Source of the DNA: a virus
Lineage: Duplodnaviria > Caudoviricetes
IMG/VR virus record: IMGVR_UViG_3300028591_000087
Location: 32,001 to 96,000 of that record
DNA length: 64,000 nt
Direction: 5' to 3' (one strand)
Made by a program: the position numbers and the translations under genes. Shown here piece after piece: positions 9,829 through 64,000 of this stretch; positions within the stretch are counted from its first letter, which is position 1; the number at the start of each line of letters is the position of its first letter. A model generated the notes under the pieces. The model saw only the letters and a list, made by a program, of their open reading frames with translations, made no database searches and was not told where the DNA came from.

Positions 9829-9831
9829 TTT

Positions 9832-20682: not shown

Positions 20683-21768
20683 TTGATTGGTATAATTCAA
20701 TTAGATTATACTATTGATTCTCCAGAAGAAAGACGAAAACTAGTAGAATAGATCTTGCGGGAAGTGCCCGACCCAAGCGAGCAATACCTAGAGATCCTCG
20801 GCGATTACTTGGTTCTTTGTATGGAGAAGCAAGAGAAAAAGGAGAAAAAAATACTTACTGAAAATCGTCTAGCTACAATCAATAAGCGAGAGATTTCTTA
20901 TGAAGGTCTGGTCAGTCAACTTGAAAACGGTGAAGATGGAATATATAATTTAATTACTGATAATGGAAAGAATACAATTTTTTAGCCGAAAGTTACTATT
21001 ACAAAACAAGACATAGAAGAGATACCGCAACTGGCGCAATTGCGCGAAAGCATAGAGCGCTGGGAAAAGTTACAAAAGACTGCATCCGGACGTGAAGCAT
21101 TTATAATCAAACGTACTTTGATTGAAATGCGCAAAGATCAATATATTATCAAAAATGCTTATAAACGTCCCATTGTATTCACAAAGTTGTCACGAGGTAT
21201 GAAAACGTTCCCACCATTACCTTGGAATGAATGGATAGAATATGACGATCAAGATAATGCTATAATCCGATATGATGGCATATCTTTCTGTGATTATCGA
21301 GTTATTAATGAAATACTTCAATTGTATCCTATTTTAAAGGGTCGATCTGAAGGTAATTTCGATGGTGATACTTGGTATATGATTCAGGATTTCTAGCCGC
21401 TCGTTGAAAGAGCACTTGCGGATTATCCGATGTATAAACGCATTGTTGAGTATAAACAAGATAAATTACAGAATGTAGAGATACAAGCATTGCTTGAAGA
21501 AGAGTTCCAATTTACGCACTCAATAGAATATATTAGTAGCTTATGGAGAAATAAGATTCCTAAGCTAATTGCGCAAAAGGCACAAGACGAATGGCTTATG
21601 TGGTATTTTACTTATATAGAAAAAGGTAAGTGGAAGAAGTGCTCTCGATGCGGAGAGGTTAAATTAGCACATTCTAAATTCTTCAGTATTAATAAAACGT
21701 CAAAAGATGGATTTTATAGTATTTGCAAGAAGTGCCGCAATAGCAAGAAAAAGGAGTGCTATGACTAA
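20683..21768 (+). CDS. Hypothetical protein with C-terminal Zn ribbon (3 in-frame TAG; start uncertain)
   Basis: Track ORFs 20755, 21040 and 21430 are co-frame and broken by TAG; ends TAA; CSRC...CKKC. Confidence 0.7.
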
Positions 21769-22955
21769 TGGCAGATGGAAAGACTTTGTACTGTAAGACG
21801 TGTAACCGTACAATGGACGAAAATTAGTTTTATCAAACTAAACGCTTAGACAAGTTTCCAGATGGATATTTGCCCGAATGTAAAAAATGTTTAACTCGAC
21901 ACGTTGATAATTGGGATCCAAAAACTTATTTATGGATTCTTGAAGATATAGACGTTCCTTATATTGAAGAGGAATGGACTACATTATTAAATAGATATGC
22001 GAAAGATCCTCGTAAAACTACTGGCATGACAATTCTCGGACGTTATTTGTCTAAGATGCGTATGAAGCAGTTTAGTATGTATTCTTGGGCTGATACAGAA
22101 AGATTGCGCCAAGAGGCTGACGCTAAGAAAGCGGAAGTTATGGCGCGACAAGGATACAGCGGCGAGGAAATTGAATAGGCTATTCAAACTGGCACAATGC
22201 CAGAAAAGCCTCAAGATTTTGTTGAGGCAGAATAGCAATAGGCTACAGTTGCGGCTGAGCCTATAGATTTAAATGCTCCAGATTTCTTTGATGATGATTT
22301 AACTGACGAAGATAAGAAGTATCTTACTTTAAAGTGGGGTAAAGCTTATCGTCCATATGAGTGGGTTTAGTTAGAGAAATTATATCAAGAAATGATGGCG
22401 GCATTTGATATTGTTACCCCGGCTCATGAAGATTATCTTAAATTGATTTGTAAGACTTCTTTGAAGTGTCATTAGTTGGTCGATCTTGGTGATATTGAAG
22501 GATTCCAAAAAATGTCTAAAGTTTATGATACATTAATGAAATCCGCTAAGTTTACTGCGGCACAAAATAAGGCCGAAAGTGGTGAATTTGTATCCGCGAT
22601 TGATGAATTTATAGTGTTGTGCGAAAAAGAAGATTTTATACCAAGATATTATGTGGATAAGCCACAAGACAAGGTTGATGAGACTTTGGCTGATCTTCGT
22701 GGTTATACGCATAGGTTAGTAACTGAAGAAATGAATCTTGGTAATCTTATTGAAAATGCTGTGCGCACTATGGCGCGAGAAGAAGCAAAAGAAGAAGATT
22801 CCGAAACTACTGAGATTGATGATGTTGATCTACATGAGCTTGAAGAAGAAGTTCTTAGTGATAATGATTTCTTAAAACACTATGAATTTATTGAAGAAGA
22901 ATAGGCTGATGATGAAGCCACTATTCGTGACCTCCTCGGAGAGGATGATGAATAA
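21768..22955 (+). CDS. Zn-finger protein immediately upstream of terminase (possible small terminase/packaging factor), TAG-recoded
   Basis: ATG 21768 with RBS; CKTC...CKKC; co-frame with 21870 and 22476; TAA overlaps the terminase ATG. Confidence 0.65.
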
Positions 22956-24685
22956 TGGCGCTTTAGGATTTATTAAATCTTAAAACTGATGTTGACAAAA
23001 TTGGCTTATCAGAAGAGCGAGTGCGGGCATGTATTCCAAAAGCACGACAATGGGTATCTTTTTGGAGAGAATATCCAGATTTATTTGTGGATTTTTTACT
23101 TCAAAAAAATAATCCAATGAACTTTGAATTATTCTTTTATCAGCGTGTATTTTTACGTGCGGCAATGCGTTATAAGTACACGTATGCAGTATTCCCACGT
23201 GCTTATTCAAAATCGTTTTTAGCCGCATTAATTTTAATTATACGTTGTATACTGTATCCAGGAGCAAAGCTATTTGTTACTTCTGGCGGTAAGGAACAGG
23301 CATCTAGTATTATTAAAGCTAAAGTACAAGAATTATGTCATCTAATCCCTGCGTTGCACGACGAGATTGATTGGCGTCGTGGTAAGACAATGGAGGGAAA
23401 AGATTATGTTAGATACATATTTAAGAACGGGTCAGTGCTGGACAATATAGCAGCTCGCGAAACTTCAAGAGGTCAGCGTCGACATGGCGGGCTCATGGAA
23501 GAGTGTGTTGGTATCGACGGTACAATCCTTAACGAAGTTATTATTCCGACAATGAACGTTTCTAGACGCGCGGCATGTGGTGGAAAAGATGACAATGAAG
23601 TTCTTAATAAATCACAAATTTATGTTACTACAGCTGGATGGAAGAATACATTTGCTTATGACAAACTAATTCAGATTTTGTGCTGGGAGATTGTAAAGCC
23701 TGAACGTGCAATGGTAATGGGCGGTACATGGAGAATTCCGGTTTTAATGGATTTGCTTGATAAGACCTTTATTAGAGATCTTAAAATGGACGGTACATTT
23801 AATGAATCTTCCTTTGAGCGTGAATATGAATCAGTTTGGTCTGGCACTATTGAAGATGCGTTCTTTAATGCAGAACAATTCGATCATAATAGAATTTTAA
23901 AATAGCCTGAATATGAGTATTCCGGTCGAAGCACAAAAAATGCTTATTATGTGCTTTCTGTCGATGTTGGTCGGCGTGGATGTGATACTGTTGTTTGCGT
24001 GTTTAAAGTTAATCCGCAAACTGCGGGAAATGCTTTAATTAGTTTGGTCAATATTTATACATTAAGTGATGCACATTTTGAAGATCAATGTATATTTATT
24101 AAGAAGTTATATTATAAATATAAAGCTAAGAAGGTAGTCATTGATGGTAATGGTCTCGGTATTGGTTTAGTTGACTATTTCGTTAAAGGTCAAACTGATC
24201 CAGACACTGGCGATGTAATTGCAGACTTTGGTGTAGATAATGACGAAGATGGTGAATATAAGAAATATCGTACTGAGATCTGTGAAGAAAATGCGCTTTG
24301 GGTAATTAAAGCAAATGCACCGATTAATACTGAAGTACATGGTAATGTGCAAAGTATGATGCAAGCCGGAAGAGTTAAGATGTTAATTGATGAACGTGTT
24401 GCTAAAATTAAATTGATGGCGACTAAAAGAGGTCAGGATATGAAACCTGAGGAACGGGCAGAATATCTTAAACCATTTACTTTAACTTCCATATTAAAAG
24501 AAGAAATGATGAATCTTCGTGAGGAAAACGAAGGTGTAAATATCATTTTGAAGCAAGCAAATAAAGGTATTAAAAAGGATAAATTTAGTGCATTTGAATA
24601 CGGATTATATTGGATAAAATTAGAAGAAGATAAAAAACGTAAACGTAATAAGAAAAGATTTAGCGATATGTTATTTATGAATTGA
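22955..24685 (+). CDS. terL: Terminase large subunit (2 in-frame TAG)
   Basis: Walker A-like PRAYSKS, RGQRRHGGLMEE Walker B, VTTAG, nuclease SVDVGR, VIDGNGLG, KDKFSA. Confidence 0.85.
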
Positions 24686-24686
24686 G

Positions 24687-25052
24687 GTGTCAAAATTGCG
24701 TGCTTCAAGAGGAGAAATAAAGATCGAAGAAATATTGCGCGAAGCCGGTATGAACTTCACTATGGAGCAATCATTCGAAGGACTAAATAGTCCAAATGGC
24801 AGACCATTGCGTTTCGATTTTTGTGTATTTGATGATGATGGAAATGTTGATTTTTTGATTGAGTATCAAGGTAAACAACATTTTGAACCATCGAGTAAAT
24901 ATGGCGGAAAGCAAGGATTTTATCGCCAATAGTTCAACGATAAAAATAAGCGTCGTTTTTGTGCGCTTAATGAATATAATCTAGTTGAGATCCCTTATAC
25001 GGATGAGAATTTAATCACTTATGATTATATTATGGAAAAAGCTGGATATTAA
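24687..25052 (+). CDS. PD-(D/E)XK, Vsr/DUF559-like endonuclease (1 TAG)
   Basis: GEIKIEEIL, LRFDF, LIEYQGKQHF, then *FNDKNK..FC..LVEIPY. Confidence 0.7.
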
Positions 25053-25064
25053 GGAGGGATTGAA

Positions 25065-26699
25065 TTGGGTGATCGCCAAGAGAACATCCACAGCAAGGGC
25101 TTTTCAATCGTTCAACGTCCAGAACTCCACGATATCTATGGTAATATAGTAGATTATGGTAAGGTAAAAGTAGGATTTTAGACATTAGATGATGCAGTTG
25201 TTGATCTTGGATCTTTTCAAAAGATTGACAGACGTACATATGGAAAACTGTCTATCTTGCAGGCACTTGCGCGCAAGGACTATCCTAAACTTCGTGATAT
25301 ATCAAATTACTTTTTTGAAGTAAGTGGTTTGTACGAAAGATTATGTAAATATTTTGCAGGACTGTATCGTTATGACTGGTATATCATGCCTTACGTAATT
25401 AAAGAGAATGAAAAGAATAATGAAAAAATTCTTGAGTAGTTTGCTGAAGCACTTGATTACTTTGATGAGAGTGGGATCAAAAAACTTTGTAATGACATGG
25501 CTTTAAAAGTTATTGTTGATGGTTGTTATTATGGTTATATAATTGAAACCTCTAAAGGCTTTACTTTTTAGGAATTACCTATTAATTATTGCCGTAGTCG
25601 CTTTAAAGTAGGTAACAAACCTGCGGTTGAGTTTAATCCAAAGTTTTTTGATGATATGTTCCCGGATGTAGAGTTGAGAATGAGAGTTCTCAAAATGTAT
25701 CCAGAGGAGTTTGCGAAGGCTTATATCGCTTATAAGAAAAACTCTTTGAATCAAAAGATGAACGATGGTAGCCGTGGCTGGTGGCTTTTAGACCCAGACC
25801 TTGCCTTTAAAATTAATCTTAATAATAGAGATTATCCATTATTGGTAAGCATCACTCCTAAAATATTGGAATTAGATGAAGCCCAAGATCTTGATCGCCG
25901 CAAGATGTTGTAGCAGTTATTGAAAGTTATTATTCAAAAATTGCCACTCGATAAAAATGGCGACTTAATATTTGACGTTGATGAAGCAAGAGATATTCAT
26001 AATAATACAGTGTAGATGTTGTAGCGTGCGGTTGGTGTAGATGTTATGACAACATTTGCGGAAGTAGATGTTGCCGATCTTGCCGACAAAAATACTACTA
26101 CAACAAGAGATGAACTTGAAAAGGTTGAGCGCACTGTTTATAATGAAGCTGGCGTTTCTCAAAACCTATTTAACTCTAATAGTAATCTCGCTCTTGAAAA
26201 AGCTAGCGCAGTCGATGAAGCCAGTGTGCGGGATTTGATATTTGAGTTTGATGAATTATTTACTCGGATTTTGCGGAATAAATATCCGGGAAATAAAAAA
26301 TGGTGTTTGCATTTCTTTTTATTAGAGACTACAATTAATAATTATAAAGAAGTGTCTAAAATGTACAAAGAGCATACACAGCTTGGTTTTTCCAAGATTT
26401 TACCATAGATTGCTCTTGGACATTCACAAAGTTCTATTTATGCTACTGCTCATTTTGAAAACAATGTAATGAAATTACAAGAAATAATGATTCCGCCTCT
26501 TATGAGTTCTACCTTACGCGGATAGGATGTATTACCTGGTTCTAAGGAAGGTAGTAATGCTCAGTCTGGTGCAAATAAGGCTGCACAGCAAGTACAGCAA
26601 GCCGCATCTGGAGATAAGAAAATGGGCAGACCAGAAAAAGAGAATGAATAGAAATCTGATAAAACTATAGCGAACCGTGAAGCTGCGGGAAAGGAGTGA
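25065..26699 (+). CDS. Portal protein (TAG-recoded, ~544 aa)
   Basis: Position after terL; co-frame fragments 25257, 25656, 26046; size; C-terminal GRP motif. Confidence 0.7.
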
Positions 26700-26704
26700 G
26701 TTAA

Positions 26705-28021
26705 GTGCCTAAGCACATCAGTGTTCCTATTGAAGGAACTGTTGAGTTACTTAATGTAGCTCCAATCGCTGATAATCCATTATTGAGTCATTGTGATATT
26801 AAAGTCTGTTATTTGGGTGAAAACCGTAATCATAGTGTGATTGACAAAGAATCCGCTATTAAAATGGCAAAGACTTTACACGGATGCCCAATTGCTGGAT
26901 TTTACGACGAGAAGCAGGAAGACTTTTCCGGTCATAATCGTAGTATAGAGGTTGGCGATGGCAAGTTCCGCATTATAGACAGAACTAAGGCTTATGGCTT
27001 TGTTGATTCAAGTTCTAAGATTTGGTTCCAAGATTTTATTGATGATAATCAAGTAAGACGTACTTATTTGTTGACTGAAGGTTATCTTTGGTCTACTCTT
27101 TATCCAGAAACTAAACGGATTTTGGAAAATGGAAATAACCAATCTATGGAACTTAATGAAGAAAATTTGAAAGGCTCTTGGACATTTGATGATAAAGGTC
27201 TTCCTAAATTTTTCATAATTGATGAAGCAATGATACAAAAGCTTTGTATTCTTGGAGAAGATGTTGAGCCTTGTTTTGAAGGCGCGGGTATTGCAGCACA
27301 ATTCTCATACGACGGTGACTTCAAGAATCAATTATTCTCCTTGATGGAGGATATTAAATCTGCTTTAAGCAAAGGAGGATTTACTTCTATGGAAGAGAAC
27401 AAGAATGTAAATGATCCTACTTTGGAAACCCCTGAAGTTGATTACAAGAAGAAGGAAGAAGACAATCAGGGAGAAAAGAAAGAAAATCCATTTCCTCCAA
27501 AGAAGGATGATGAGGGTGGCGACGAAAAGAAGCCAGCCGAAGGTGAAGACAAGAAAGAAGAAGACGACGAAGATAAGAAGAAGAAGGCTCCAACAAAGCA
27601 TGAGCTTACTGATGATGAAATCGCCGATTCTGAACTCTATAAAAATCTTGCAGTTCAGTTCACAGAACTTCAGAAGCAGTTTGAAGCTTTAAGAAGCGAA
27701 GTTGAACCATTACGTCAGTTCAAAGTTGACGCTGATCGTAAAGCAAAGCAGGATATGATTGATAGCTTCTATATGCTTTCCGACGCTGATAAGAAGGATT
27801 GCATTGATAATATTGATACTTATAGTCTCAATGATATTGAAGCTAAGTTATCTATTATTTGTGTTCGTAACAAGGTGTCTTTCAACCTTGATGACGATAA
27901 GAAGGAAGATAATACTTCCAAGAAAGAGCCTACCATCTATAGTTTGGATGGTACTGATGGTGAGGACAACGCACCTGCTTGGATTAAGGCTGTGCGCGAA
28001 ACCGCCAAAGAATTGAACTAA
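26705..28021 (+). CDS. Prohead protease/scaffold protein
   Basis: GENRNHS, H, QSMEL, LCILG..VEPCFEGA, then an acidic coiled-coil tail; position between portal and capsid; no TAG. Confidence 0.7.
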   Translation: MPKHISVPIEGTVELLNVAPIADNPLLSHCDIKVCYLGENRNHSVIDKESAIKMAKTLHGCPIAGFYDEKQEDFSGHNRSIEVGDGKFRIIDRTKAYGFVDSSSKIWFQDFIDDNQVRRTYLLTEGYLWSTLYPETKRILENGNNQSMELNEENLKGSWTFDDKGLPKFFIIDEAMIQKLCILGEDVEPCFEGAGIAAQFSYDGDFKNQLFSLMEDIKSALSKGGFTSMEENKNVNDPTLETPEVDYKKKEEDNQGEKKENPFPPKKDDEGGDEKKPAEGEDKKEEDDEDKKKKAPTKHELTDDEIADSELYKNLAVQFTELQKQFEALRSEVEPLRQFKVDADRKAKQDMIDSFYMLSDADKKDCIDNIDTYSLNDIEAKLSIICVRNKVSFNLDDDKKEDNTSKKEPTIYSLDGTDGEDNAPAWIKAVRETAKELN

Positions 28022-28044
28022 TTTTATAAAGGAGGAAGCTACGT

Positions 28045-28878
28045 ATGGCTTTTACAAGATTATCTCCAGAAGCTAAATTCGTTACTTACGGCTTCGGTCA
28101 GGTCGAGCCAAACCATCTCAGTGCTCAGAGAACAGCTGAAATCTATGCTCAGTTGCCTGCAGCAGCAAGCATTGATATTCTTGAGAATGGTCAGTTCGTT
28201 AAGTACGACTACGCTAATGGTGAAGTAAACTTTACTGGTCCTGGCGAATGGATGCTCGTATTCAACGAAGTTAAAGTATATCGTGATCACGAAACCGATC
28301 AGGATTTCGCTATGATCCGTCGTGACTATAATGGTCGTGTTTACAGCCCAGTTGGCGTTGGTGCCGCAGCTGGTATGTGGGGTTCCGCTCAGGGCATCAA
28401 TGGTGTTAAGATTAATGGTTATGGAAGTTCCGCTGATTGGGACATGATGAAGAAGATCCAGGAACAGGTTGAAATTTATGAGGATGCTCATAACAATCCT
28501 GCTGGACAGGCTCCAGACTATGGCCGCAACCATTATGCTATTGGTAACAGCTACGAAGTTGAAAAGCTCAACATCCCTCAGATGGCTGAATATGCACAAC
28601 CAGATCGCACTGGCAAGATTCCAGGCGCAGAAGGATACAATCCTAATAATAGAGCTGGTTTGATGGTTCCTCGTGTATTTAAGACTCACGAAGGTGACAT
28701 CTTCACTACTAATACTATTGCTGACGCAACCGTAACACTTGGGTCTGTTCTTACTCCAAATGCTAAAGGTTATCTCAGCGCAACTGGCGCTAACAACGCT
28801 GCATTCCAGTGGCAGGTCGTTAAGATCTACAACCTCGGCGATATGCAGAAGGCTGTTAAAGTTATGAGAATTAAGTAA
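28045..28878 (+). CDS. Head decoration / minor capsid protein
   Basis: Directly upstream of the MCP; strongly biased codon use; no TAG. Confidence 0.55.
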   Translation: MAFTRLSPEAKFVTYGFGQVEPNHLSAQRTAEIYAQLPAAASIDILENGQFVKYDYANGEVNFTGPGEWMLVFNEVKVYRDHETDQDFAMIRRDYNGRVYSPVGVGAAAGMWGSAQGINGVKINGYGSSADWDMMKKIQEQVEIYEDAHNNPAGQAPDYGRNHYAIGNSYEVEKLNIPQMAEYAQPDRTGKIPGAEGYNPNNRAGLMVPRVFKTHEGDIFTTNTIADATVTLGSVLTPNAKGYLSATGANNAAFQWQVVKIYNLGDMQKAVKVMRIK

Positions 28879-28900
28879 TAAGGAAAGGAGAGAAAAGTCA

Positions 28901-30019
28901 ATGTTAGAAAGAAATGAACTTTTAAAATTGATGAAGGCAACTGCTAAAGCTGACCGCTCTGCTCCTGTTGCTTATTCATTCAATGGCTAGAATCTTAGCT
29001 ACGAAGCTCTTAATGAGACTCTTCGTAAAGAATTAAATGAACTCGCTGGTACATTTGCTCTTTATCGCGAGAATAAGAATACCATCTTCTCTATTATTGA
29101 AGAGACTATGGACGACGTTCTTCCTAAGAAAGTCGAAGAAAAGTATGAACAGTTTGCAGAAGTAAAGACTATCCAGCAGGGTAACTCTACTATGTTCTGG
29201 CGCAAGCATGATCGTCAGCGTGCAAAGCAGTTCATCACCAAAGTTGGTTTGGCTGGTATTTACGAAGTATTTAAGCTTGGTAAAGATACACCAATTGAAG
29301 TTCAGACCAGCGCTATCGGTGGAGCTGCTCAGATCGGTCTTGAAGAGTTCCTCGACGGCCGTGCTGATTTTGCTGAAGTAACTCAGATCGTTATGGAAGG
29401 TATTGACGAACTCATTCATTGGGAAATCGGTGCTGCCCTTAAGGAAGGTCTTACTCAGCTTCCTGCTCTCAACACTGTTGTAACCAACGGTTTTGATGAG
29501 AAGGCATTTGATCGTTTGCTCGCTATTTCTGCAGCTTACGGCACTCCTACTATCTATTGTACAGAAGAATTTGCTCAGAAGATTCTTCCAAGCAATGGCA
29601 ATGGTACTTATGCTTCTTGGTCTGATAGCATGAAGGATACCATCTGGAACAATGGACGTTTTGCTTCTTATAAGAATCACGTCATCAACATTCTTCCACA
29701 GGGATTCACTGATGCTACTCATACCACTAAGGTTATCGATCCTGGTTTCTGCTATATCCTTCCAGGTAATGTAAAGCCTGTAAAGGTTGTTATGGAAGGT
29801 CAGACAATTGTTGACGAGTATACTAACAAGGATCGTAGCCGTGAAATCCAGGTATATAAGAAAGTCGGCGTTGGCGTCGTAATGACTCCTGACATTTGCG
29901 TATACAAGGATACCGAACTTGCTGGACAGTATGGCGTATATCAGGGTGACAAGGTTGTTCCTAACAACAATAGCAATAGCACTCCTGAGACTCCAGCTCA
30001 AAATCCAAGCAATCCTTAA
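28901..30019 (+). CDS. Major capsid protein (372 aa, single TAG at codon 30)
   Basis: AAGGAG RBS, ATG 28901 in frame with 29108-30019; highly biased codons; position; hairpin follows. Confidence 0.75.
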
Positions 30020-30092: not shown

Positions 30093-30683
30093 GTGAATAT
30101 GAAAAGTGATATGAAAATTAACGTGCGCAATAGAAGTAATTCAGTCGTTGTTTATAACGTTGATGATTTGCGTGTTCGTCGTGAATTTATGCCGGGTGCA
30201 GTAAAGAGTGTTCCGCTTGAAGAAATTTATGCGTTAACTCAGCAACCTGGTGGCGCCGAGATTGTTGCTAATTATCTGTTTATTGAAAGCCCCGCCGCGG
30301 TGGAAGAGATGTCAATGAATGTAGAACCTGAGTATTATTTGGATGACAAGGGAGTTATTGATCTTCTAACTAATGGCTCAGTAGATGCTTTACTCGATTG
30401 TCTTGATTTCGCACCTGCTGGCGTACTTGATTTAGTACAGAAGTATGCTATTGAATTACCAGTAACTGACACTCGTAAGATTAAGGCTATTAAAGATAAG
30501 ACTGGTTTTGATGTAGCTTTATCTTTAAAACATAAAGCTGAACTCGAAGCAGAAATGGCTGAAGCTGGTGAGCAAACTGAAAGTGGTATGACTGTTGAAC
30601 GTAGAATTAAAAAGACTGAATAGGCAGAAGCACCATCTGGACGCAGAACAACTCCTAAGTATAATGTCGTAAAGAAAGACTAA
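30093..30683 (+). CDS. Hypothetical head-associated protein
   Basis: ORF extends through TAG 30621 to TAA 30681, next to the next gene's RBS. Confidence 0.6.
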
Positions 30684-30695
30684 GGAGGATGTTAA

Positions 30696-31313
30696 ATGAC
30701 GTCATTTAATACTATCATTAATGCTTTCCTTAGTAAGATTACAGATGATATGTACTTGGAACTTACTATGGAAGACACGATTCGTGATTCGAAATAGTAT
30801 TTACTTGATGCCATTCCTTATTTTGAATTTCCAAGATTTGCGTTATATGATTATGATGCATCCGCGGGCGTATACAATGTTGATCTCACATAGGAAGAGA
30901 TCAACATTTTTGCTATACTTATGAAATAGGCTTGGCTTGATCGGCAAATTAATTCAGTGGAGAATACTCGTATGAAGTATTCTGGTTCTGATTTTAAATT
31001 TACTTCTCAGGCAAACCATTTACAAAAGTTATTAGCATTAAAAGCAGAAAATCATCGTGAGAACATTCATGCACAACGTTTATATAAACGTCGCAGATTT
31101 AGAAATGATGGATCTGTTATGTCCAATTGGATGATCTTAAATCAAAGCGCTCTTGATACTCAAAGCAGACCACAAAATGTTCCTGCGCAATCTTCATCTG
31201 AGAATGATAATGGAGACAATTGGACCCCAATTCAAGAAATCGTTACTCCGGTTAATACCAATAGCGATAATGATGATGATTATTACTGGGAGCAGATTGG
31301 TGGTGGCAATTAA
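30696..31313 (+). CDS. Putative head-tail adaptor (TAG-recoded)
   Basis: AAGGAGG RBS; MTSFNTIINAFLSKITDD...; co-frame with 30957; synteny. Confidence 0.55.
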
Positions 31314-31624
31314 TGAAATATTATAATGTTAATTTTTCTAATGCCACAATTACACAAGATTTGCGGAGATTAGTCAATCAGATTTGGAAGTTATTGCCAA
31401 TGCGGGAAAATAATGAGGATTGGCAAAAATAGTTAGATTCTGTTTTAGTAGAACTTAGAGGACTTCATGTGATGTTTGGCGACCAACTCGATTTTCTTAT
31501 TTTATTAAGTAAGTTAGAAGGATTGCATGAAGTTGAAGACTTTATGATATATCGAGTTACAGTTTTTAGTATGATTTCATTATTAACTGAACTCGCTAAT
31601 TCAATAGATGCTGGAAAATCTTGA
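31313..31624 (+). CDS. Hypothetical protein (1 TAG)
   Basis: Hand-translated; fills the operon gap with a TAATG overlap. Confidence 0.55.
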
Positions 31625-32552
31625 ATTAATGAAAATGCGCGCACGTGCTGCGGGTAATGATCGTCAACATAACCGCATGATAATCGATAAGCAACGTAGT
31701 TTGCATCGCGCATTATTATATTCCTATCAAGCAGCTTGGGTTAAAAAAGATAATGATTCTTCAGCTGATTGGGTTAGAGCTTTAATGAATCCGGATAAAG
31801 TTAAGTTTGACTATGATGAGAAAATTATTTCAATAGATTGGGAACATAATTTTAGACCTGGAGATACCTTTGAATGGGGCAAGGGCACAGGAAGCCATTG
31901 GATGGTATTAAAAACTGAGGATACAGAGTTGGCTTATTTAAGAGCCAATTGCCGCAGATGTTAGAAACTATCTGCTTTTGATCCGATAAATAAAGAAATG
32001 TTTAGTTAGTGGTGTGTAATACGTGGTCCAGTTGAAACTAAAATAAATACTATTCAAAAGGCTGGTATTGTTGCAGATGTGCCGAATTTGACTCTTGATA
32101 TATATATGGCTGATACTGAAAGAAATAGACGTACATTTGAGAGATATGTGAATTTTGAGTTTGATGAAAGATTTTGGAAAGTATAGGCTGTGGATTTTAT
32201 AAGTACACCTGGCGTGTATGAAATTGTAGCTGAAGAGGATTATGAATGTCATAATCATGAACAATATTTACAAGTTGAGAAACCAGAACCAGTGCCGGCA
32301 GAGGTAAATGAGATTTTAGGTGACGCTTCAATTAAACCAAGTGAGAAACATTGCTATATGATGAAGCTACCTGCCGTAGGTGAATGGACAATTACATTAC
32401 CGGCAACTAAGAATAAAGAGATAGATGATGTAATGGACTACACTATTGATGGTGATAAAATCTTTGTTACTTGGACAATGTTGCGGTCTGGATCATTTAT
32501 ACTTCATTATGGTGAATATGAAAAAACTGTAAATGTTGAATCATTATTTTAA
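31608..32552 (+). CDS. Putative head-closure/neck protein with C-terminal Ig-like region (TAG-recoded)
   Basis: 31608 and 32190 fragments are co-frame; synteny. Confidence 0.5.
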
Positions 32553-32566
32553 GGAGAAAATGGAGT

Positions 32567-33097
32567 ATGAAAGTCGGAGAGGAATTTTTCAATCCTGAAT
32601 CAAGTTTTTTAATTATTGAAAAGGATTTAGAAAAGATTGCTAATAAAATGCTGAAAAATCAACGGCTTTTAAAATTATTGCATTACCGTGAGGCGAATGC
32701 ATTAGACAAGCCTAGTTTAACACAAGCTGAAAAATTAGCATTAATAAACCATGAAATAAAAATTGTTCCAAAGATTGACATTGAAAAAGAATGTCCTATT
32801 TATGTGATTATCACTTTTGATAATTTTACGCCGAATGTGAATAATGATAAATTTAGAGATTGTACTTTAAGTTTTGATATTTTTTGTCATCCTGATCATT
32901 GGAATTTGGGTAACTTTTAGTTACGTCCTTATAAAATTGCGGGCGAATTAGATGCTATGTTTAATAATACAAAGATGACTGGTATAGGAACATTATAGTT
33001 CATGGGTGCTAATAATTTAGTACTTAATGATCAATTGATGGGTCTTACATTATTGTATAGATCTGTACAAAGCACAGAGGATACGTTACCAGTTTGA
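32567..33097 (+). CDS. Putative tail terminator/completion protein (2 TAG)
   Basis: Extends through TAG to TGA 33095; FDIFCHPDHW...RPYKIAGELD; synteny. Confidence 0.5.
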
Positions 33098-33852: not shown

Positions 33853-33870
33853 ATAAGGAGGAAATAACCT

Positions 33871-34905: not shown

Positions 34906-34917
34906 TTGAATGACAAT

Positions 34918-34953
34918 AGGGGAGATACGAATAAGTATCTCCCCATTTTTTTT
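34918..34953 (+). terminator. Intrinsic terminator after the tail tube gene
   Basis: GGGGAGATAC..GTATCTCCCC plus T-run. Confidence 0.8.
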
Positions 34954-34976
34954 ATTACGCGGAAAAGGTGATGCTA

Positions 34977-36206: not shown

Positions 36207-36246
36207 AAATTTTTTGGTATAATAAGAGAAAAAGGAGGCCAGAAAG

Positions 36247-48192: not shown

Positions 48193-48214
48193 ATGAGAAA
48201 AAGGAGTGAGTAGT

Positions 48215-51200: not shown

Positions 51201-54200
51201 TTCAAGTACAAGATAGTGATATAAGATGTGTAGGATTGAAACAAACTACATATCAAGATGAATCAATAGTAACAAATAACAACCCAGTTATTTATTGTTA
51301 TGTTATGAATGATGAAATTGATTTTGATTCATCTTTTAGCTTAGAAAATGATGGCATACATACAGTTGCATATTTTTATACGAATGTAAAGAATGCTATT
51401 AACCAAGATTATGCAGATAAGATTAGTGAACTATATGATTAGGATACAGTTGATCTTGACGCAGAATCAGCATTATTAATCACTAAGAATAATCGTATTC
51501 GTGAACTGAATCGTATTGTATAGAATCTTATTCCCCAATATACTGAATATGCTCTTGATCCTTATATTGGATATACACCAGGACGTGACGTCCCTTGGCA
51601 GTGGGATGATTCGCTTGAAGACGATTATTATACAATTTTATATTTTACTAACACAGATAATTTAAATGGTTAGGCTTATTATAAACAAGCCATTCCATTT
51701 ACTCGTAATGTATATAGTTCTTCATTGGTTAATTCTTGGAATGGTTCTTTAACTCTTGATGAACAAAATGGTGCTGTCTTGGCAACAATGATTAGCGCTG
51801 GCGCAAAAGACAGTAAGAATCGTTTTACAGGTGTTATGATGGGTGATTGGGCAGAGAAAGCTGATAACTCATTAGATGTACCTGGATTATATGGATTAAA
51901 ATATGGAGAACAAGTATTTGGATTTAAGACTGATGGTACTGGATTTATAGGTGCTTCTGGTAAGGGACGTATTGAGTTTGATGGTAATAAGTCTTTAATT
52001 AGTAATAATGATAGAACTTGTTACATTAACTTAGATCCAATTATCTACACTCTTGATACAAATAATCAAGTTGCGAGATTAAATAATTATTCTGGTTTTT
52101 CTCAATATTTCTTATATGCGCAAACTAAGAAAACAAGTAATGGAAATTATTTGGGTGAAGATAAATTAGAGGCTTCTACCTCTTGGGCATATGATTTTAT
52201 GTAGGATACAACAAATGATTACTTCATTGTTGATCCTAATAATGGTATTTTAACTACTGGTGGAATAATTGCGCGATATGGTAAGATTGGCAACTGGATG
52301 ATTTCTAATCTTGGTTTATACCAAAAGAAATCAGATGGTTTGACTTATACTGATAATCGTTATATGTATTTAGGCTTTTCCGCACTTACTGATGAAGAGC
52401 AAGCAATTATTGATGCTAAATATGGAACTAAGTATGCGAACCTTGAAAATCGTTATAGTATGATGATTCGAAGCGCGCGATCCAAGTTCCGCATGGAAGA
52501 GTTTAAAGTAATTGGTTAGTATAAGAAAGATATCTTTAATGTTGACCCAATTCATTTCTTTAATTACGCATGGCCAGTATATGACATTATTCAAGCATTG
52601 TAGGATACTCTTGATTGGGTTGATGATAATCCTGAGTATACTACAAATGAACTAATTAATACTTTAAAAGAACGAGTAGGCTATTACATTTATGAGCAAA
52701 CTTATTCTGGTTATCATAGACATTATAGTCATGGTGTAATGGAAAACGGTACACCTTATACTGGTGGTACTAGTGTTTATGGATATTGTATAACTAATTT
52801 GTCTGTTACTAATGATTCATACAGTGGTCAAACATTATAGATAGTTGCTAATACAAATAGACAACCAGAAGGACATCATTTCGCAGTATTTTGGACTTCA
52901 AGCACAAATAATACAAGTTTAATGAGTAGATACAATAACTTCTTTGGTACTCCTGGTTCATAGGGTGCATCTCAAAATCCACCTTATTACACAAGTGCGG
53001 AAGTTACTGCACATCAATGGGCTAATTGCTATACAGAGTATGGCGCAAAGACTGCAACATGTTCACGCTTAAATACTAATTTAGGTGAACAATATAATAA
53101 TGTTGAAGTATATCAAGAGACTCTTGATTGGTTGACAGCTTATTATAATTATCATTTGGAAGCATACCTTGATCAATTGGATATGATGATTGCGGAAGGA
53201 TTAAAAGATCTTACCGCAGAACAACGTGCTATTTATGATGCGGCAAAAGCAGAGAATGAAAGACAATTGCAATTGTATATTAAAAATGTAGTTGATCCTA
53301 TTTATAATTCTTATAAGTCTGCTTTTGATACTGCGAAGAATAAAGATATTCAAGAGTTCTTAGATGCTTCTTATGAAAATAGATATGCAATATTTGCGGG
53401 ATATCAATATGACCATGACCCACTATTTAGTGTAAACTGGCGTGGATATATGACCGCACGTGCGGGTAAAATTGGTGATTCTGCACCTTGGTATATTACA
53501 GATCACGGTCTTACATAGACAAGTGAATATGAACAAAGAGATAATTCAAATTTGCTAATTAGAAAAATTTATAGTACAATATTCTTAGGGAATCCAGATG
53601 CTCCTGCTAATAAAGCTGATTGGACTGACCTTGCAGGTGACACAGATCAATTAACTTTATTGCCAAATCATAATGAGGATGATAGTCCGCTGGTTTGGGG
53701 TGCATCTGATTTACCAAATGCTCCAACAAGAGGACGATTTGCTATTTATGCCGGTGGTCCTGGTTATGAGCGCAATTGGAATCCAAGCACAAATACTTGG
53801 ACCAGAGAATGGGTAAATACTGGAAAAATAAAATTTGGTGTGCGTCCAGATGGTACATTATATTCTACTCAAGGCGAAATTGGTAAATGGAAAATTTCTA
53901 ATATGAGTTTGAGTAGTTATGATGATAATATTATTTTGGACTCAAATAATTCATAGATTGTGCTTGGTATGGGTCGTACCATTTTATATGGTAATGGTAA
54001 GATTAAGTTAATTAATAGTGATGATAATGGCAATACCGCACGAGCTTGTATTGAATTAGCTGATTATCAATTAAGTGCGGATACTACAACTCATAGTGCA
54101 AGTAATTTACAAGTATTATCCGCGATTTCTACTGGCAGTTCTGGTGGTGGTGGAGATGGTAATATTACTAGTTTTGATGTTAATTGGCATTATAGCGGTG

Positions 54201-55435
54201 TTCATAGTGGTTAGTCTTACACTTATACTTGGAACACAGCGACTGCGATAACTGGTGAATCATCATCCACTATTGGAACATTATCAGAGCCAAATATTTT
54301 TTCTATTTGGGAACAAGGCTTGAATAATGCTGGTGTTAATTTAGTTACTGGTAAATTAGATTCAACAATTATTGGTGCAATATTATATCCACATAATGTA
54401 ACAAATGGTTATGCAACTTTAGGTACTCCTGGATCACCATGGAATTTATATGCTAATTCTATTTAGGGTGGCAATGCAAGATTAAATTCATTATATCTAG
54501 ACCAAGATGAATTGTATCTTGGTGGTGAAAAAGCTGCAACTCAAGAATGGGTTATCAATAAGTTAAAAGATTTAGTTGATAATGTATTATCTAATGCAAA
54601 TAGTGATGCTGGTGAAACAGCAGAAAAAGCTTAGAATGGTGTGCACAATGTTTGGAATAAATTAGCAGGTGCTTTTGATGGACCTTATTTTATTCATTCT
54701 TACAGTTTTGGTACTAATATTGGCTCTGGAGAAAAATTAGTATTATGGAGAACTTATAGTACATTTAATTTTGGAGCAATAGCTGATGGTGGAAATACTG
54801 CTAGTATAAATGTAAGAAATACAACATTAGAGAAACAGTCTTTAGGCGGAGAAGTTATAATTAATGGATTTGATGGAGGCGCTTCTGGTAAAGTTGCTGA
54901 TGGTTCATCTGTTTCTTCAACAGACTCCATAAAATCTTCACTTGGTACTTTAATAACAGCGTCAAGTAAAAGTGTAACAAAAATTGATACACTTACAATG
55001 AATGGCAAAAATATAAAATTGCAATTAGGTAATGCAAATGGTACTTGTGGTGATGCTGCTGAATAGTCTCTTAATCATTCACATGATTTTAATTTTGATT
55101 TTAGTGGTGGTGTTGTATCATTAACTATAGGTGATGCAAATTTTAATTCGGCCACGTCGGGACCTAAAACGTTCAACGTGGCCGCGACTCGCTGGTATGA
55201 TGATTAGATTTAGACTGCTAAAGTTGAAGCATCAAATGCAGCATTATCTGGTGTCTATGTTGGCTTTTCTGATGGAAAAGCAATTGCATATTCTGAAGGC
55301 GGATCAGCTTTAGACAGTAAATCATATCCAACGTCAAGTGTATCTGTTTCATTGGTTAAAGGTGATAGTACAATTCCTATTACTAGTGGATACACAATTC
55401 CATCTTCAGCAGTAGGCTATACTATAACATTCTAA
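48215..55435 (+). CDS. Very large tail/baseplate or adsorption protein (~2,406 aa, TAG-recoded)
   Basis: Fragments 48473 through 54641 share one frame; AAGGAG RBS; GxIGxWxI beta-repeat motifs; TAA at 55433. Confidence 0.7.
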
Positions 55436-55847: not shown

Positions 55848-55849
55848 TC

Positions 55850-58800
55850 GTGGCTTTATCTCCTACAAAATTGCCACCACCAAGTGTTTCTGGTACTATT
55901 CCTCCATTTTATGAAGATACAATCAAAGGGACTGTCAAATTGACAGTCCCTTTTACGATGAATCGTACCGTAAGCACATTGGAAGTTGGTGGTTTTTAGC
56001 TTCGTATAAAAGATGCTAATACAAATGCCTCATTGGGCAATATAACCACATATAATTGGAATAATGATATTAATAGTCCAGAAGTAGTATTTGATTTAGG
56101 CAATGCAAGTTCTAAGACAAGTATTGCTGGAAAATTAAATGTTGGATATTATTATAAAATATAGATTGCATATATTGATTCTTCAATGCTTCATCACGCA
56201 GGATATTTTTCAACTATTTGTATTGTTAAATTTACAAATAAACCAAAAGTATATCTCGCGCACTTGAATCGCTATATGACTAATACAGATGTAATTGATT
56301 ATACTGGAGTATATAGTAATTCAGATACAAGTGAAAAAGCATATCAATATATGTTTACATTGCGTGATTCTAATGGAACTATTCTTGAAAATTCTGGCTG
56401 GCTAACTCATAACTCTAACACTGACACTGAGCAAGGTCAATCTCAAGACTTATATACTTTAATGCACGCAATTACTCCAGATGATAAATATACTATGCAA
56501 TATAGTGTATTAACAACAAATAAACTTCGTATTGATAGTCCACGCTATCAAATAGTTGGTTCAACATCTATTCTTCCTGAATTAGATGCTTTCTTAATCG
56601 CCGATCCTGATTATGAAAATGGATGTATAAATCTTACACTACAACCCAAATCTATGGGTCGTGATAAAACAACAGGCGAAAAATTAGTTGCTAAATTAAG
56701 TGGATCATTTGTTTTAACAAGATCTTCTTCAGAAGAAAATTTTGCAATTTGGACTCGTTTATATGCGTTTACCCTTACCGGCAGATTGCCGGATGGTGCT
56801 TTATTCACTGATCATACTATTGAACAAGGTCAAACATATAAGTATGCTATTCAATAGTATAATGAACATGGAATATTCTCAAGTCGTATTTATGCTTCAT
56901 ATAGAGAATATGATGAGTTCGGTGATTTAGTACCAAGTGAGAAAACAGAAATAGTTGCTACATTTGAAGATATGTTCTTATATGATGGAGAGAAACAATT
57001 ACGTATTCGCTTTAATCCTAAAGTATCTTCTTTTAAAACAACATTATCTGAAAGTAAGAAAACAACAATAGGAAGTAAATATCCGTTCTTCTTTAGAAAT
57101 GGTATTACACAATTTAAAGAATTTCCAATCTCTGGTTTAATTTCATACATGATCGATGATAATGAATATTTCTTAGATCGAGTTAATGATCTTAATATGC
57201 CAATAGACTGGACAGATATAACTGATATAACAGATGAAAACTTAACATATGAACGTAAGTTTAAGTTAGCTGTATTAGATTGGTTAAATGATGGTTAGAT
57301 TAAACTATTTAGATCACCTGGTGAGGGCAATTATCTTGTGCGGTTAATGAATGTTTAGCTTACACCAAATGATTCACTTTCCCGCATGATCCATACCTTT
57401 CAATGCCAAGCGACAGAAGTAGATGATTGTAACGCATCTAACTTATCTAAATATGGATTCTTAAAAGCTGATCCAACAATACCAATGTAGTTACGTTTTG
57501 GTACTATTGTTTTAGATGAGTTTATTGAAGAGATAATTGAAAAGATTACTCATCAAAGACGCAATAACAGTGATGAATATTATACAGTAGCTGATGCTTT
57601 GGAAATGGTTAAAACTCAAGACCTATTGAATGGTTGGGCATGTCAATATTTAAAAATAGAAGAATGCTGGCCGCATACAGAGTTTGAACTTGATGGCAAT
57701 AATTTTTATATTGGATCTACTGGTCAATATGAAGCGTCATTTACTGATAAGCCATATGGACTTTATTTAAAGAATCCTCGTCGGCACATGCAAGGTATCA
57801 TTACCTATGGTGTACTTACTTCTGTCAATAATCAATTTGATACAGTCGTAAGTTTAACTCAGTCTGATGTATTTCAATTTTTAGATTATCAAGGTGGATC
57901 TAATTTTATTGAAGAGAATACATTCCAGAAATCACGTATTAACAAGATTTACTTTATGCACTTTTATCTTAATGATTTAATTTATGACTTTGAATCTCTT
58001 GAGCATTTTTAGAATATGTATGGCATGTATATGCAGATTTAGCATGAAGAAAACATTGGTGATGAGACAGATCAAAATGGTATATTAATTTGTCATTTAA
58101 GAGGCGTTGAACCAATTTCTGAAGAATATCATTATTTAGATGAATATTATCATAAAGTATATAATGAACAAACTAATACGTTTTATTATGAATATATTCA
58201 ACGTGGCGCGGGAGATCTTTATGTAGATAATACATTAATTCGCATGGCGAATGGTGATATTTATAGATATACTTTAAAGAGTGATTTTGATTATTATGCG
58301 CCTGACCCATTACACGGTGGCGGTTATTATACTAATGCAGAACATTTTGGTATCGCTGGTATTATGACAAAACTTGAAATTGATGAAGAAGGCGTAGCAC
58401 CAAGTCAAGTTATTATTGATAATGATGTAATTGATATTTCACTAACAAAAGATGCTTATCTTCCAATGACTGAAAAAATCCCAGAAGTTGTTCGTTGGGG
58501 TGAAGCAGTTCGTGCGGAAATCTGCTACCAGAGACTTACTATTGATTATGGTCCAGAGTTTAACGAAAAAGTCATTGTTGGTAAATCATATTCAATGAAA
58601 GATCTCTATGATTATATAGATGAATTACATAAATATTATGATGCGTCTATTTTAAGATATGATAGATGGCCTGGTAATATTAATATTATTAACTTAGTTA
58701 GAAACTTAAATAGTGATCCAAATATGACATTCTATGTTTGGAAGCCTTGGGATAGATTCTATCGCTTAGAAGATGAAGAACGTTTATCTTTTACTGGCGA

Positions 58801-59047
58801 AGAAGTATGGATTCCATGCACTGGATGGAAATTTGATGCGAACGATGAGTGGGAATATGCTGATGGAGAAATAATTTCTGGCGCGAGTTATTATGTACCT
58901 ACTAATCCAGTGGTTGATTATAACTCTGTGGAACAGCCAACAGACGGTCCTGGAAATTATTATCCACATGCAATTCGGCAATATGACCAACAATTAATTG
59001 AGAAACTTGCGGAAGAGGAGAGGGAGTTGAACTTAGATGGCAACTGA
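55850..59047 (+). CDS. Tail/baseplate protein with FN3/Ig-like domains (~1,065 aa, TAG-recoded)
   Basis: Co-frame fragments; DHTIEQGQTYKYAIQ FN3-like motif; TIGSKYPFFFRNG. Confidence 0.6.
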
Positions 59048-61835
59048 TGCTTTACTTGATAAAGATTTTTTACAGAAGCTTGACGCTAATCGGCATAAGA
59101 CTCTCTATGCAAAAATTATTTCCTTGAACTTTGATGAAGATCCAATAGCAGAAATTACTGGCAATATTACTGGTGGTAGTATCAATGTTGATGGGTCTTC
59201 ATCTGTCCGCCGGTCATGTTCTCTCACTCTTGTTACAAATAGCGTTCGTATTAATGAAGTTGATTGGACTTTGCGCACAAAGTTTAGAGCTATGATTGGC
59301 GTGTAGAACACAGTTGATCCAAATTATGATGATGTTATTTGGTTCCCACAAGGAACATTTGTAATTACTTCATTTAGTTCTACATTAAATGATAAAGGAT
59401 ATACAATTAATATATCTGGTAAAGATAAGATGTGTTTACTTAATGGCGAAGTGGGCGGTTAGTTATTTGCGGCGCATGAATTCAGTACGATATATACTGA
59501 ACAAAAGGATGGTACGATAACTAAAACAAAAATACCTATTTCTACTATTGTGCGCGAAGCTGTTCATACCTATGGACAAGAACCATACTTTAATATTATT
59601 ATTAATGATTTAGAATCTTGCGGCGTTGAATTAATTGATTATATTGGCGACGATGCTAAGATGTATATTTTTGAACTCAAAGCACAAGATACAATGGACC
59701 CATATACACAACAGATTACATTTGAAGGGTCTTATATTGCTGATCTTTGGGATGCAGAGATAGAAGCTCATAATGGTTTAAAGCAAGATATTTATATGAC
59801 TATTGGTGATAGTGAAACTGGCTATTATGAATATCATTTATTAAAATGTATTGATCCGAATGAAGATCCTGATACTACCGCAGGTTATCGGGCAACAGAT
59901 CTTATTTATCCAAATGATTTAATTGTTAACATTGGTGGTAATATAACTTAGATGTTAGATGAGATTATTAAGATGCTTGGTGAGTTTGAATATTTTTATG
60001 ATGTAAATGGTAGATTTATTTTTCAACGTAAAAAGATTTATTATAATTCATCCTGGAATAATGCAATTACTTATGAGAATCAAACATATTATGATTCTGT
60101 AGCTAATAGTTCAGCAAGTGTTTATAATTTTCAATCTGGTTATTTAGTAAACTCATTCTAGAATAAACCAAATATCGGTGCAATTCGTAATGACTATTCA
60201 GTATGGGGTAAGCGCACAAGTGCGTCCGGTGATGAACTTCCTATTCATTTGCGCGAAGCCTTTGATGTGCGACCAACAATATATTACAGCCTATTGGATA
60301 GAAAAACTTATATGGCAGATTTTTATAGCTTTAAAGCTATTTCTGGATATAAGAAAGATGATTCTGGCAATTATATATATGACTCTATTGGTTAGCCGAT
60401 TCCAGAGTATACAATTGTATCTGGTAATTATGACTGGCGTGAATTGATTTATCAAATGGCGCGAGATAATCTCGCAGCCGATACAAAGATTAAAGCATTT
60501 AATTATGCGCTTCAAGAAAAATTTTATCATTATTCTGAATATAAAATGGATAAACAATAGGATTATTTACATTATTATAAATTTAATACTGTAACCGAAA
60601 AGTTTGAAGCATTAAAAGAACAAGATAAATCAGGACTTGAAGAAGAAGAATATGAAGCTCAACCAGGTTTGGCTGCTTATGAAGAGTGTAAAGAAAATGG
60701 TGTATATTTATTTGGTCCAGATATGTCAATGGCAGAATGGTATATAACTGATTCTACTATTGAACAATTGGAAAATGATATACGTTTTGGTGTATATTAT
60801 ATTTATGATGAACAACATGATACTTACGAAAAAGTTACGAAATATGATAAAGTAATTGAAGACTATGTGTATGGTGTAAATGATTATTAGACTTAGTTCT
60901 TAAATATATATTATTCCGCAGATTACACAATAGAACAAAAGCAAGTATTACTTAATGATCTATTAGAATTAAAAGAAAGAGAACAAGATCTATTAGATTA
61001 TTATAATCGTAATAATGTTATTGATGATCTATTGCATGAAATTGATGCATGGTCAAAGACGTTCAATACTGGTTATGATGCTTATTATGCGGATATGCTT
61101 TAGTTCTGGCCTTATATGTATAGAACTACAAATGTAATTCAATTTGTATATGATGAAGATGGCAATATTTCGCTTGATGATAATGGTGATCCAATTTATT
61201 CTTCATCAAGCATTCCGTCAAAGAAATGGAAAAAATGGTGTGACAATGGATATTGGAATCCTGATTTGATTTATTGGAATCCTCAAACAAGAGAGATTAC
61301 ATTTAAAAATCCTGAATTGTTATATTTTTGGATTGAATTTATTGAACAAGATACCGATCCATCTTTATGGGAGTACTCAGTCCCTGTCATCGGAAGACGG
61401 TCAAAATCAATTAATGATGATAAGGTAAAAGCTATCTATTTTAGAGAGACGCCTAATATTTTATTCGTAAGTTCTGATTGGGATGAAGTAAAAGGGTCTG
61501 AATATTTAGGATATGAAAGCATTACAACAGATCAAACTTGTATTGCTCATATTAACTTAGTACCACCAATATCTAATTATTTTCGCATTAGTCAATAGGG
61601 CAAGAGTGCAAAGGAAGTAATAGATGGTTTGATTTATGATGGTACTTATTATAAAGAATCTATTACTTTAAGTTGTATACCTATATATTATTTTGAACCT
61701 AACACGCGCATAACTGTTTAGGATGATATGACAGGTATTAACGGTGAATATCTTATTAAATCATTTTCTATTCCACTCGCTCACGATGGGTTCATGTCCA
61801 TTCAAGCGACGCGTGTTGTTGATAGAATAGATTAA
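59037..61835 (+). CDS. Baseplate hub/tail protein, DUF5048-like (~932 aa, TAG-recoded)
   Basis: ITGGSINVDGSSSVRRSCSLTL, GKDKMCLLNG, EYFYDVNGRFIFQ, PIYYFEPNTRI. Confidence 0.65.
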
Positions 61836-61849
61836 GGAGGAAACGGAGA

Positions 61850-62182: not shown

Positions 62183-62187
62183 GCTAA

Positions 62188-64000
62188 ATGGGATTTTATG
62201 GTAAGATAGCTAACTCCAATAAGACAGCTTTTAGTTTTGATATAACTTATTAGACCAGACAATACATGGATGAAATGGCTCAATCCGATGGTGTCTTTAT
62301 TGGTCGTTATGTTTTGATTGAATATGATGAACCACCTATCACAGGTTATTTTAATGGTACTGATTTCTATACAACTCCTACATTTAATTCGGCAGTTGTA
62401 GAAACAAAAATCGAACCTCGTGAAGGTGTTGTTTATCAAGATTTAATGAAATATAATAGTGTTGCTTCTTTCTATCGTTGGGATGGCGAGAGATATGTAG
62501 CGCTTGATGTTTCAACTGGATACGCAGCTTGCTTTAATACAGACGTTATTCGCTATGGACGTGGTTATGATTCTACTGCTTGGATGAAAACATGGGATAC
62601 TACAAATCAGCGGTATCGCTATGTAATGGTAGCAGAATTAAATACTATTGTTCCTACTTTTAGTATTATTGCGGACTAGCCTGGTGATGCACCAACCGCG
62701 CCTTATTTTGATAGAGATTCTAGCAATGTAAATTATTTCTTACACGTACAAAGTGCTTGGCAATCAAGTATTCGTTAGGCTAATCCGCAAGGGCGTTTAG
62801 GAGATAATGACAGAATTATTCCTTCAAAAGACGCTTTTGATGTATCTGATGAAAATGTTTCATTTACAAAAATTAATTGGAGTAGTGACGTAAACTTAAA
62901 TCAGCAATTCTATGCTATTGAAGAGTACAATACTCCTGGTGATATTTTCTATAATAAAGCTGGTTTCCAAAAAGAACAACGCAACTTTTATACTTTAGCT
63001 ATTGATCCAGATCGTCCAAACGATCCTACTGATGGTAAGATGATTAATACTATCAACTATGATTTAAATCGTAGTGGTAGACGTTATGGCGCGGGCTTAA
63101 ACGCAAGTGGTACTGCGTGGACTTCTGGTAAAACTGCTGATGATATGATGTAGTGGTATATTCATTTACCGATTCTTGGTAATTCTATTTGTACTCTTTG
63201 GGATACATTATATGGATATGATACTCAAACTAATTCAAGATATACTCGTTTAGGATCTCAGCGTAGTGATCCGGATTCTAAAGTAAGTTATAATACCGCT
63301 TCAGCTATTGGTTGTATTAATAGAATCCGTGATATGCTTGGTTGGGGTATCCAACAATTAGATCAGCAAACAACTATTGGAACTACTACTTTAAATAGTG
63401 CTGATGCAGATAAACTTTATTATACTTTAACCAGTGAAGGTTTAGAAAAAGAAGAAGAAATTGTGGATAAGTATTATTACTATGCTTATTATCCTCTTTG
63501 GGTTGAAGTATTTTATGATAGTGTAAATAATGAATGGTACTATAATACAGAAGAAGAAGGTCGTGTTGTAATTGAAACATCCGATCATCATCCTGATTAT
63601 TATAGATTATATTATTTAGATCCTAAAGACCATATTTATAAGCATGTACAAGGTACATTATATCAAAGTCAATTGACTGATGGCACACCAATGCCAGCTT
63701 ATTATCAGCATTATTATACTCCACAACCTCAATGGATTTTGACTGAATTAGAAGCTCCAGATGAAGATTCATTATATGGGTTAATTTTACGTTTGCATCA
63801 ATTGATTGGAACTAATGCTGAAACTGAACGCAATCCAGAATCTTTGTGGGGAGTTATCAATATTATGAATGACACAATCAAGAATATTGGTAAACAACTC
63901 GCACCACAAAGAATTTTAGCTACTGACCAAGGTGGTCAGATTATTACAACTAATACTGAGTTCCCATTTGCGGCCACTCGCACAACAGTAACAGATAAAA
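62188..64000 (+). CDS. Tail fibre/baseplate protein, 3' truncated by the window (TAG-recoded)
   Basis: MGFYGKI start, DGVFIGRYVL, GRGYDSTAW; frame stays open apart from TAG. Confidence 0.6.

Follow-up and report, generated by a model that had tools for sequence, protein, structure and literature searches.

Late-gene TAG codons very probably read as glutamine in a large uncultured phage whose CUA tRNAs carry a second anticodon-like arm

How can a phage keep one of the three stop codons inside the frames of its portal, terminase and tape measure genes and still make virions? The question is raised by a 64,000-nucleotide stretch of DNA (the window), which corresponds to bases 32001-96000 of one 193,102-bp IMG/VR virus record (IMGVR_UViG_3300028591_000087). 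A sequence-only reading of the window had claimed that TAG is recoded, probably to glutamine, across the morphogenesis region. Our analysis makes it highly probable that UAG stands for glutamine in the late genes of this phage and is decoded by the phage's own CUA tRNAs, that its early genes avoid TAG and that the host charges the tRNAs. The phage is a large uncultured siphovirus-type phage of the gut or rumen, and its nearest cultured relatives infect Bacillota.

Between window positions 20683 and 64000 the plus strand is filled by a tight series of long open reading frames (ORFs) once TAG is taken as a sense codon, whereas translation table 11 leaves only short ORFs. The 22 plus-strand ORFs from 20683 on hold 165 in-frame TAG codons in 14,367 codons, with no TAA and no TGA; in the two alternative frames of this DNA there are 1273 TAA and 1257 TGA. 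With TAG as sense these ORFs cover 97.5% of positions 20683-64000, as compared to 60%, in 61 fragments, under table 11. Treating TGA or TAA as sense instead does not repair the block. All 22 ORFs terminate at TAA or TGA and most of the starts are preceded by an AGGAGG-type ribosome-binding site, so recoding across the region and the gene ends described in the sequence-only reading are both borne out. Over the whole genome, coverage by stop-free frames of at least 150 codons rises from 0.62 to 0.84 when TAG is read as sense and reaches 0.9-1.0 over genome positions 52-124 kb; the recoded late block continues past the window to about 124.5 kb of the genome (window 92.5 kb). Homology to PHROG and Pfam families also runs across the in-frame TAG codons. 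Specifically, the portal profile matches residues 47-541 of a 544-aa ORF and spans nine of them. PHROG profiles of the tape measure protein and of virion structural proteins likewise extend over TAG positions.

The identity of the inserted amino acid was addressed by comparing the window ORFs at the DNA level with 15 IMG/VR relatives at 48-88% protein identity. TAG codons of the window align in these relatives to CAA 126 times, to TAG 80 times and to CAG 39 times, and the next most frequent partners are GAG, GAT and GAA with 15 each. In the reverse direction, TAG codons of the relatives align to CAA (118), TAG (80) and CAG (37) in the window. Since TAG is exchanged with CAA and CAG among relatives, it acts as a third glutamine codon. 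It is important to note that the exchange is mostly with CAA, and this weakens the earlier argument for glutamine from a single transition from CAG. All 15 relatives have in-frame TAG and essentially no other in-frame stops; the recoding is therefore old in the clade, while single TAG sites turn over.

A comparison at the protein level gives the same answer. In 27 TAG columns, taken from the portal, the 932-aa tail protein and a 395-aa protein and aligned with 389 homologues, glutamine is the plurality residue in 12 and has a mean share of 0.365. Summed BLOSUM62 scores over these columns are 51 for Q, 31 for E, 20 for K, 3 for S, −37 for Y and −55 for L, and W is negative as well. Three portal columns have Q in 120 of 120 homologues, and one of the three, column 169, has Q in four of six cultured standard-code phages. 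Column 317 of the terminase large subunit (TerL) has Q in Enterococcus phage H1. At most portal TAG columns the cultured standard-code phages, at 22-30% identity, are uninformative, and no alignment is possible at the first TAG of TerL (codon 4). The contexts quoted in favour of glutamine, GFYRQ*FND (TAG at 24930) and KML*QLL (25911), are both present in the window.

Two other explanations of the in-frame TAG codons have to be considered. That there is no recoding at all, and the TAG codons are genuine stops in genes that have decayed, artefacts of the assembly or sites of low-efficiency programmed read-through, would agree with the run of fragments that table 11 produces, but it is barely conceivable when one stop codon of the three stands in frame 165 times and the same pattern recurs in the 15 relatives with TAG positions turning over. 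Essential genes (portal, terminase and tape measure) are hit, 70 low-efficiency read-throughs in one ORF would leave no product, and the genome encodes CUA tRNAs of its own. It is also very improbable that TAG encodes another amino acid, be it Ser, Leu, Tyr, Lys, Glu or pyrrolysine. Ser, Leu or Tyr was suspected first because the CUA tRNAs, at 89-93 nt, have a long extra arm and G73, two traits of bacterial tRNA-Ser; other phages in IMG/VR do have CUA tRNAs on true Ser/Leu-type bodies, ARAGORN labels the tRNAs 'Pyl', and E, K or D predominates in some TAG columns. The codon and protein alignments ruled out Ser, Leu and Tyr: TAG is exchanged with CAA or CAG in 165 cases against 2 for TCA, the top serine codon, 4 for TTA and 1 for TAT, the BLOSUM62 sum of Q stands far above those of S, Y and L, and several TAG columns are invariant Q. 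Moreover, the extra arm is not of the Ser/Leu type, being a hairpin with a Gln anticodon-like loop, and 'Pyl' is merely the name that ARAGORN gives to the anticodon CUA.

If UAG is indeed read as glutamine, a decoder has to be present. The sequence-only reading had seen no suppressor tRNA in the window, and this holds for the window itself, where no tRNA gene was found; two tRNA(CUA) genes are located elsewhere in the genome. The 71 tRNA genes of the genome form two arrays near the contig ends, with one tRNA(CUA) in each (supA and supB in the similarity tests), at genome c[4496,4588] and c[182267,182355]. Both CUA tRNAs have a weak or mismatched 1-72 pair, G2-C71 and G73. No release-factor domain (PF00472, PF03462; release factors 1 and 2) and no GlnRS/GluRS domain (PF00749, PF03950) was found in the genome. 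In the absence of a phage GlnRS the host enzyme must load the glutamine. A hint at the host comes from a related contig that is binned with a metagenome-assembled genome of Lachnospiraceae, and a GlnRS-type anticodon-binding domain is present in 40 of 41 Lachnospiraceae genomes. An apparent GlnRS on that related phage contig was rejected, as the match sits on a separate 65.7-kb contig of the same metagenome-assembled genome.

TAG is not used evenly by the different classes of genes. The late block has 8.6 TAG per 1000 codons versus 1.9 in the minus-strand block at genome 125-183 kb, and the replication genes of the latter (DNA polymerase, NrdD, RecJ, DnaB and one topoisomerase II subunit) have none. 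TAG is the first stop in only 2 of 91 early ORFs that have a ribosome-binding site. Within the late block the ORFs at window 26705-30019 and 33871-34905 contain 0-1 TAG each and their remaining glutamine codons are mostly or all CAG, whereas TAG-rich genes favour CAA; these TAG-poor virion genes coincide with a local G+C peak of 0.43. They are probably the most abundantly expressed virion genes, and their preference for CAG suggests that codon choice in highly expressed genes is selected to avoid slow or leaky suppression. A GIY-YIG homing-endonuclease-like ORF on the minus strand (genome 145434-146429) has seven TAG codons inside the otherwise TAG-free replication block, and a PhoH-like gene (genome 153928-155241) has four.

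These patterns suggest the following course of events. UAG would be read as glutamine in the genes for packaging, head, tail and tail fibres, and the decoders would be the two phage-encoded copies of tRNA(CUA), competing with host release factor 1. Early and replication genes, which shun TAG, could be produced in an unmodified host, and the TAG-laden late genes would be completed only after the suppressor tRNA has built up. If early genes are free of TAG and late genes need the suppressor, the recoding would act as a translational timer. We infer this timing step after the published model for code-15 phages.

The CUA tRNAs have a feature of their own, because the extra length of both consists of a hairpin that follows the anticodon arm and precedes the T arm. 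The 7-nt loop of this second arm is CUCUGAA in both genome copies, as compared to CUCUAAA in the true anticodon loop; the hairpin thus displays CUG, a glutamine anticodon. When IMG/VR was searched with the shared anticodon-arm sequence, 100 distinct phage CUA tRNAs were obtained, and 30 of them have the second arm, with the triplet CUG in 24 and UUG in 6. In 24 of the 30 the arm is separated from the T stem by 9 nt, a distance that one strand of a normal anticodon stem and a variable loop of 4 nt would together fill. The stem covaries: pair 4-14 is C-G in 10 sequences, G-C in 8 and U-A in 2, 77% of the cells are paired where shuffles give 55%, and covariation scores 0.51 versus 0.16 shuffled (0 of 500 reach 0.51) and 0.05-0.18 with slid partners. 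No two-armed opal or ochre suppressor was present among the IMG/VR loci examined, and our literature searches found no description of the second arm. At five IMG/VR loci (L090:7318-7407, L088:948-1035, L072:1461-1544, L026:2386-2472 and L084:2834-2919) the CUA tRNA has a true class II (Ser/Leu-like) body and no Gln-like loop, and TAG may stand for something other than glutamine in those phages.

A useful reference is the supE (glnV44) suppressor of E. coli, a tRNA-Gln with the anticodon CUA that inserts glutamine at UAG. It is a tRNA of ordinary build (75 nt), and its charging is reduced by the G36A change. The acceptor end of the phage CUA tRNAs also looks Gln-like, with the weak or mismatched 1-72 pair, G2-C71 and G73. 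What supE lacks, and the phage tRNAs have in addition, is a hairpin on which the lost CUG triplet is shown again. This second hairpin, which reproduces the anticodon loop of tRNA-Gln, may keep the CUA tRNA acceptable to host GlnRS after the anticodon change. A more specific version, to which we give somewhat less than an even chance, is that the arms work in tandem: CUA would read UAG on the ribosome and CUG or UUG would be shown to host GlnRS, perhaps via an alternative cloverleaf in which the second arm takes the anticodon position, since its 9-nt distance from the T stem is that of a normal anticodon arm. The same version includes a possible coupling to the sigma-like first gene of the late block, and that gene itself requires three TAG read-throughs. 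An alternative that we also hold to be a real, if not quite even, possibility is that TAG encodes glutamine and the second arm has nothing to do with charging, being a leftover of a duplicated arm, a bait for an anticodon nuclease or a docking site for a phage protein or a modifying enzyme. The geometry of the arm is compatible with a tandem duplication of the anticodon arm, and phage phAss-1 has a normal-sized CUA tRNA beside a two-armed one, so the arm cannot be essential in all phages. A neutral leftover, however, would not readily explain why a Gln triplet is kept in all 30 two-armed tRNAs while the stem covaries, which argues for selection on the triplet, and in the present genome both CUA tRNAs are two-armed and no normal-sized one accompanies them.

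Several observations weigh against glutamine decoding by host-charged phage tRNAs or against a role of the second arm in it. The bodies of the CUA tRNAs are not clearly those of tRNA-Gln in whole-body similarity; only the 5' half of supA is closest to the phage tRNA-Gln(UUG), and for supB no tRNA stands out as the closest. In the minimum-energy fold of supA some bases of the CUG loop are paired, which gives a 5-bp stem capped by a GAA triloop. The variable-arm position is far from the anticodon site of GlnRS, and an arm that serves as a decoy would need an alternative fold or another binding mode. The two copies of tRNA(CUA) may stem from separate phage variants that the assembly merged. The base 3' of the TAG codons shows no bias (p = 0.20). 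Finally, the Q counts in the 120-homologue portal set and in the 27 columns are possibly inflated, because the public protein collection holds the full 932-aa read-through product of window 59037-61835 (P0121) and other database homologues have perhaps been translated with code 15 too. The codon-level count in the relatives needs no translation table, and the cultured phages, informative at few columns, are likewise free of that bias. It follows from the same entry that standard annotation, which had been expected to miss almost all of this region, no longer does so entirely.

Reading of TAG as glutamine (code 15) has been described in gut phages of the crAss-like, Lak and 'gemstone' clades (bioRxiv 10.1101/2021.08.26.457843; Peters et al. 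2022, PMC9523058). Borges et al. proposed that the recoding delays late proteins until the code-change machinery has been made (bioRxiv 10.1101/2021.08.26.457843). As in those phages, TAG is concentrated in structural and late genes here, replication genes are compatible with the standard code and the genome carries its own tRNA(CUA). Their host is presumed to use the standard code and the proposed role of the recoding is the timing of late-gene translation; we presume the same for the phage studied here. It differs from the code-15 phages of Borges et al. in lineage, being a Bacillota-type siphovirus, and in its 3763-aa tape measure protein, the lack of a release factor 2 gene and the 71 tRNA genes. 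It also differs in its two-armed CUA tRNAs, as Borges et al. report no such arm (the term 'variable arm' occurs 0 times).

The nearest published genome is that of phAss-1 (proposed genus Phassvirus; Babkin et al. 2023, PMC10607447; OQ749652), in which TAG encodes glutamine, the tape measure protein exceeds 3000 aa and the predicted host belongs to Clostridia. Identity to phAss-1 is 44% in TerL, 36% in the portal and 51% in the capsid candidate, and the genome of phAss-1 has 136 kb versus 173-193 kb here. With identities of 36-51% the two phages belong to the same broad group, and ours clearly stands outside the genus Phassvirus. phAss-1 carries the same two-armed tRNA(CUA) at 62445-62532, where the present phage has two. 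Its normal CUA tRNA of 72 nt lies beside the two-armed one (OQ749652 62445-62610; L146:5911-6076), and this makes a natural pair for comparison. Babkin et al. treated the phAss-1 tRNAs as ordinary suppressors and did not mention the extra arm (PMC10607447).

The genes of the recoded block, all on the plus strand of the window, follow the order of a phage morphogenesis module. A putative look-alike of a host-type promoter (TTGACT-17 nt-TATAAT, 20615-20643) precedes the first ORF (20683-21768), which has 361 codons with TAG at codons 23, 101 and 238. Its match to phrog_5767 (E 1.9e-48), the one PHROG match it has, makes it a candidate sigma factor. It is followed by a conserved ORF of 395 aa with seven TAG and no assigned function (21768-22955), by the terminase large subunit (22955-24685; 576 aa, two TAG), which shares 49% identity with the TerL annotated in Enterococcus phage H1, and by a 121-aa ORF (24687-25052), the single TAG of which is the one at 24930. 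The portal protein (25065-26699; 544 aa, nine TAG) was recognized by its PHROG profile. Next come two TAG-free ORFs of 438 and 277 aa with glutamine mostly encoded by CAG (26705-28878) and the candidate major capsid protein (28901-30019; 372 aa), with one TAG against 15 CAG. Among the gene labels given earlier, portal, terminase and tape measure stand on profiles and homology; that of the major capsid protein depends on gene order and an unnamed family, phrog_4088.

Head-tail joining and tail genes occupy 30093-36771 with nine ORFs of 0-7 TAG each, including a TAG-free virion structural protein (33871-34905). In the ORF at 30093-30683 the sole TAG lies 20 codons ahead of the TAA. Here, and nowhere else in the block, TAG could still be a real terminator or yield two C-terminal forms. 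The tape measure protein (36818-48109; 3763 aa, 70 TAG) matches tape-measure PHROG profiles and PF10145 (E 2.1e-27). Downstream of it there are tail-region ORFs of 2409 aa with 27 TAG and no family match (48206-55435) and of 1065 and 932 aa with 8 and 11 TAG, respectively (55850-61835). The last ORF, of 913 aa (62188-64000 in the window), has four TAG inside the window and ends at window position 64929, 929 nt beyond it. A Pfam search of the first ten late ORFs and an Rfam search of the window gave no match, and sequence searches of the PDB with three of the proteins (capsid candidate, TerL and sigma-like ORF) returned nothing significant.

Two further properties of the record concern its assembly and composition. 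The ends of the genome, 44-19611 and 172958-193102, are collinear and homologous, with 65-95% identity, as far as the last base, and each contains a tRNA array, one CUA tRNA, a pair of radical SAM genes and a gene for YcaO or a repeat protein. Either 20 kb are truly duplicated and have diverged, or the assembler joined two phage variants; in the latter case the true genome unit is perhaps about 173 kb. The window region at about 2000-18000 has a G+C content of 0.46-0.52, as compared to about 0.33 elsewhere, and contains short ORFs only, whichever way the stop codons are read.

TAG-to-Gln recoding of phage late genes is already known, and this phage is a further, deep-branching case. For annotation the consequence is direct: table 11 loses about 40% of the 43-kb block and leaves the rest in 61 pieces, and with TAG as glutamine the block becomes a normal phage morphogenesis module. 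The two-armed suppressor tRNA, which lies outside the window, is a more interesting lead than the recoding itself. If the reading with two arms is true, it would answer how host enzymes charge the suppressors of code-15 phages, a question left open by Borges et al., and the second arm could also serve in the engineering of suppressor tRNAs.

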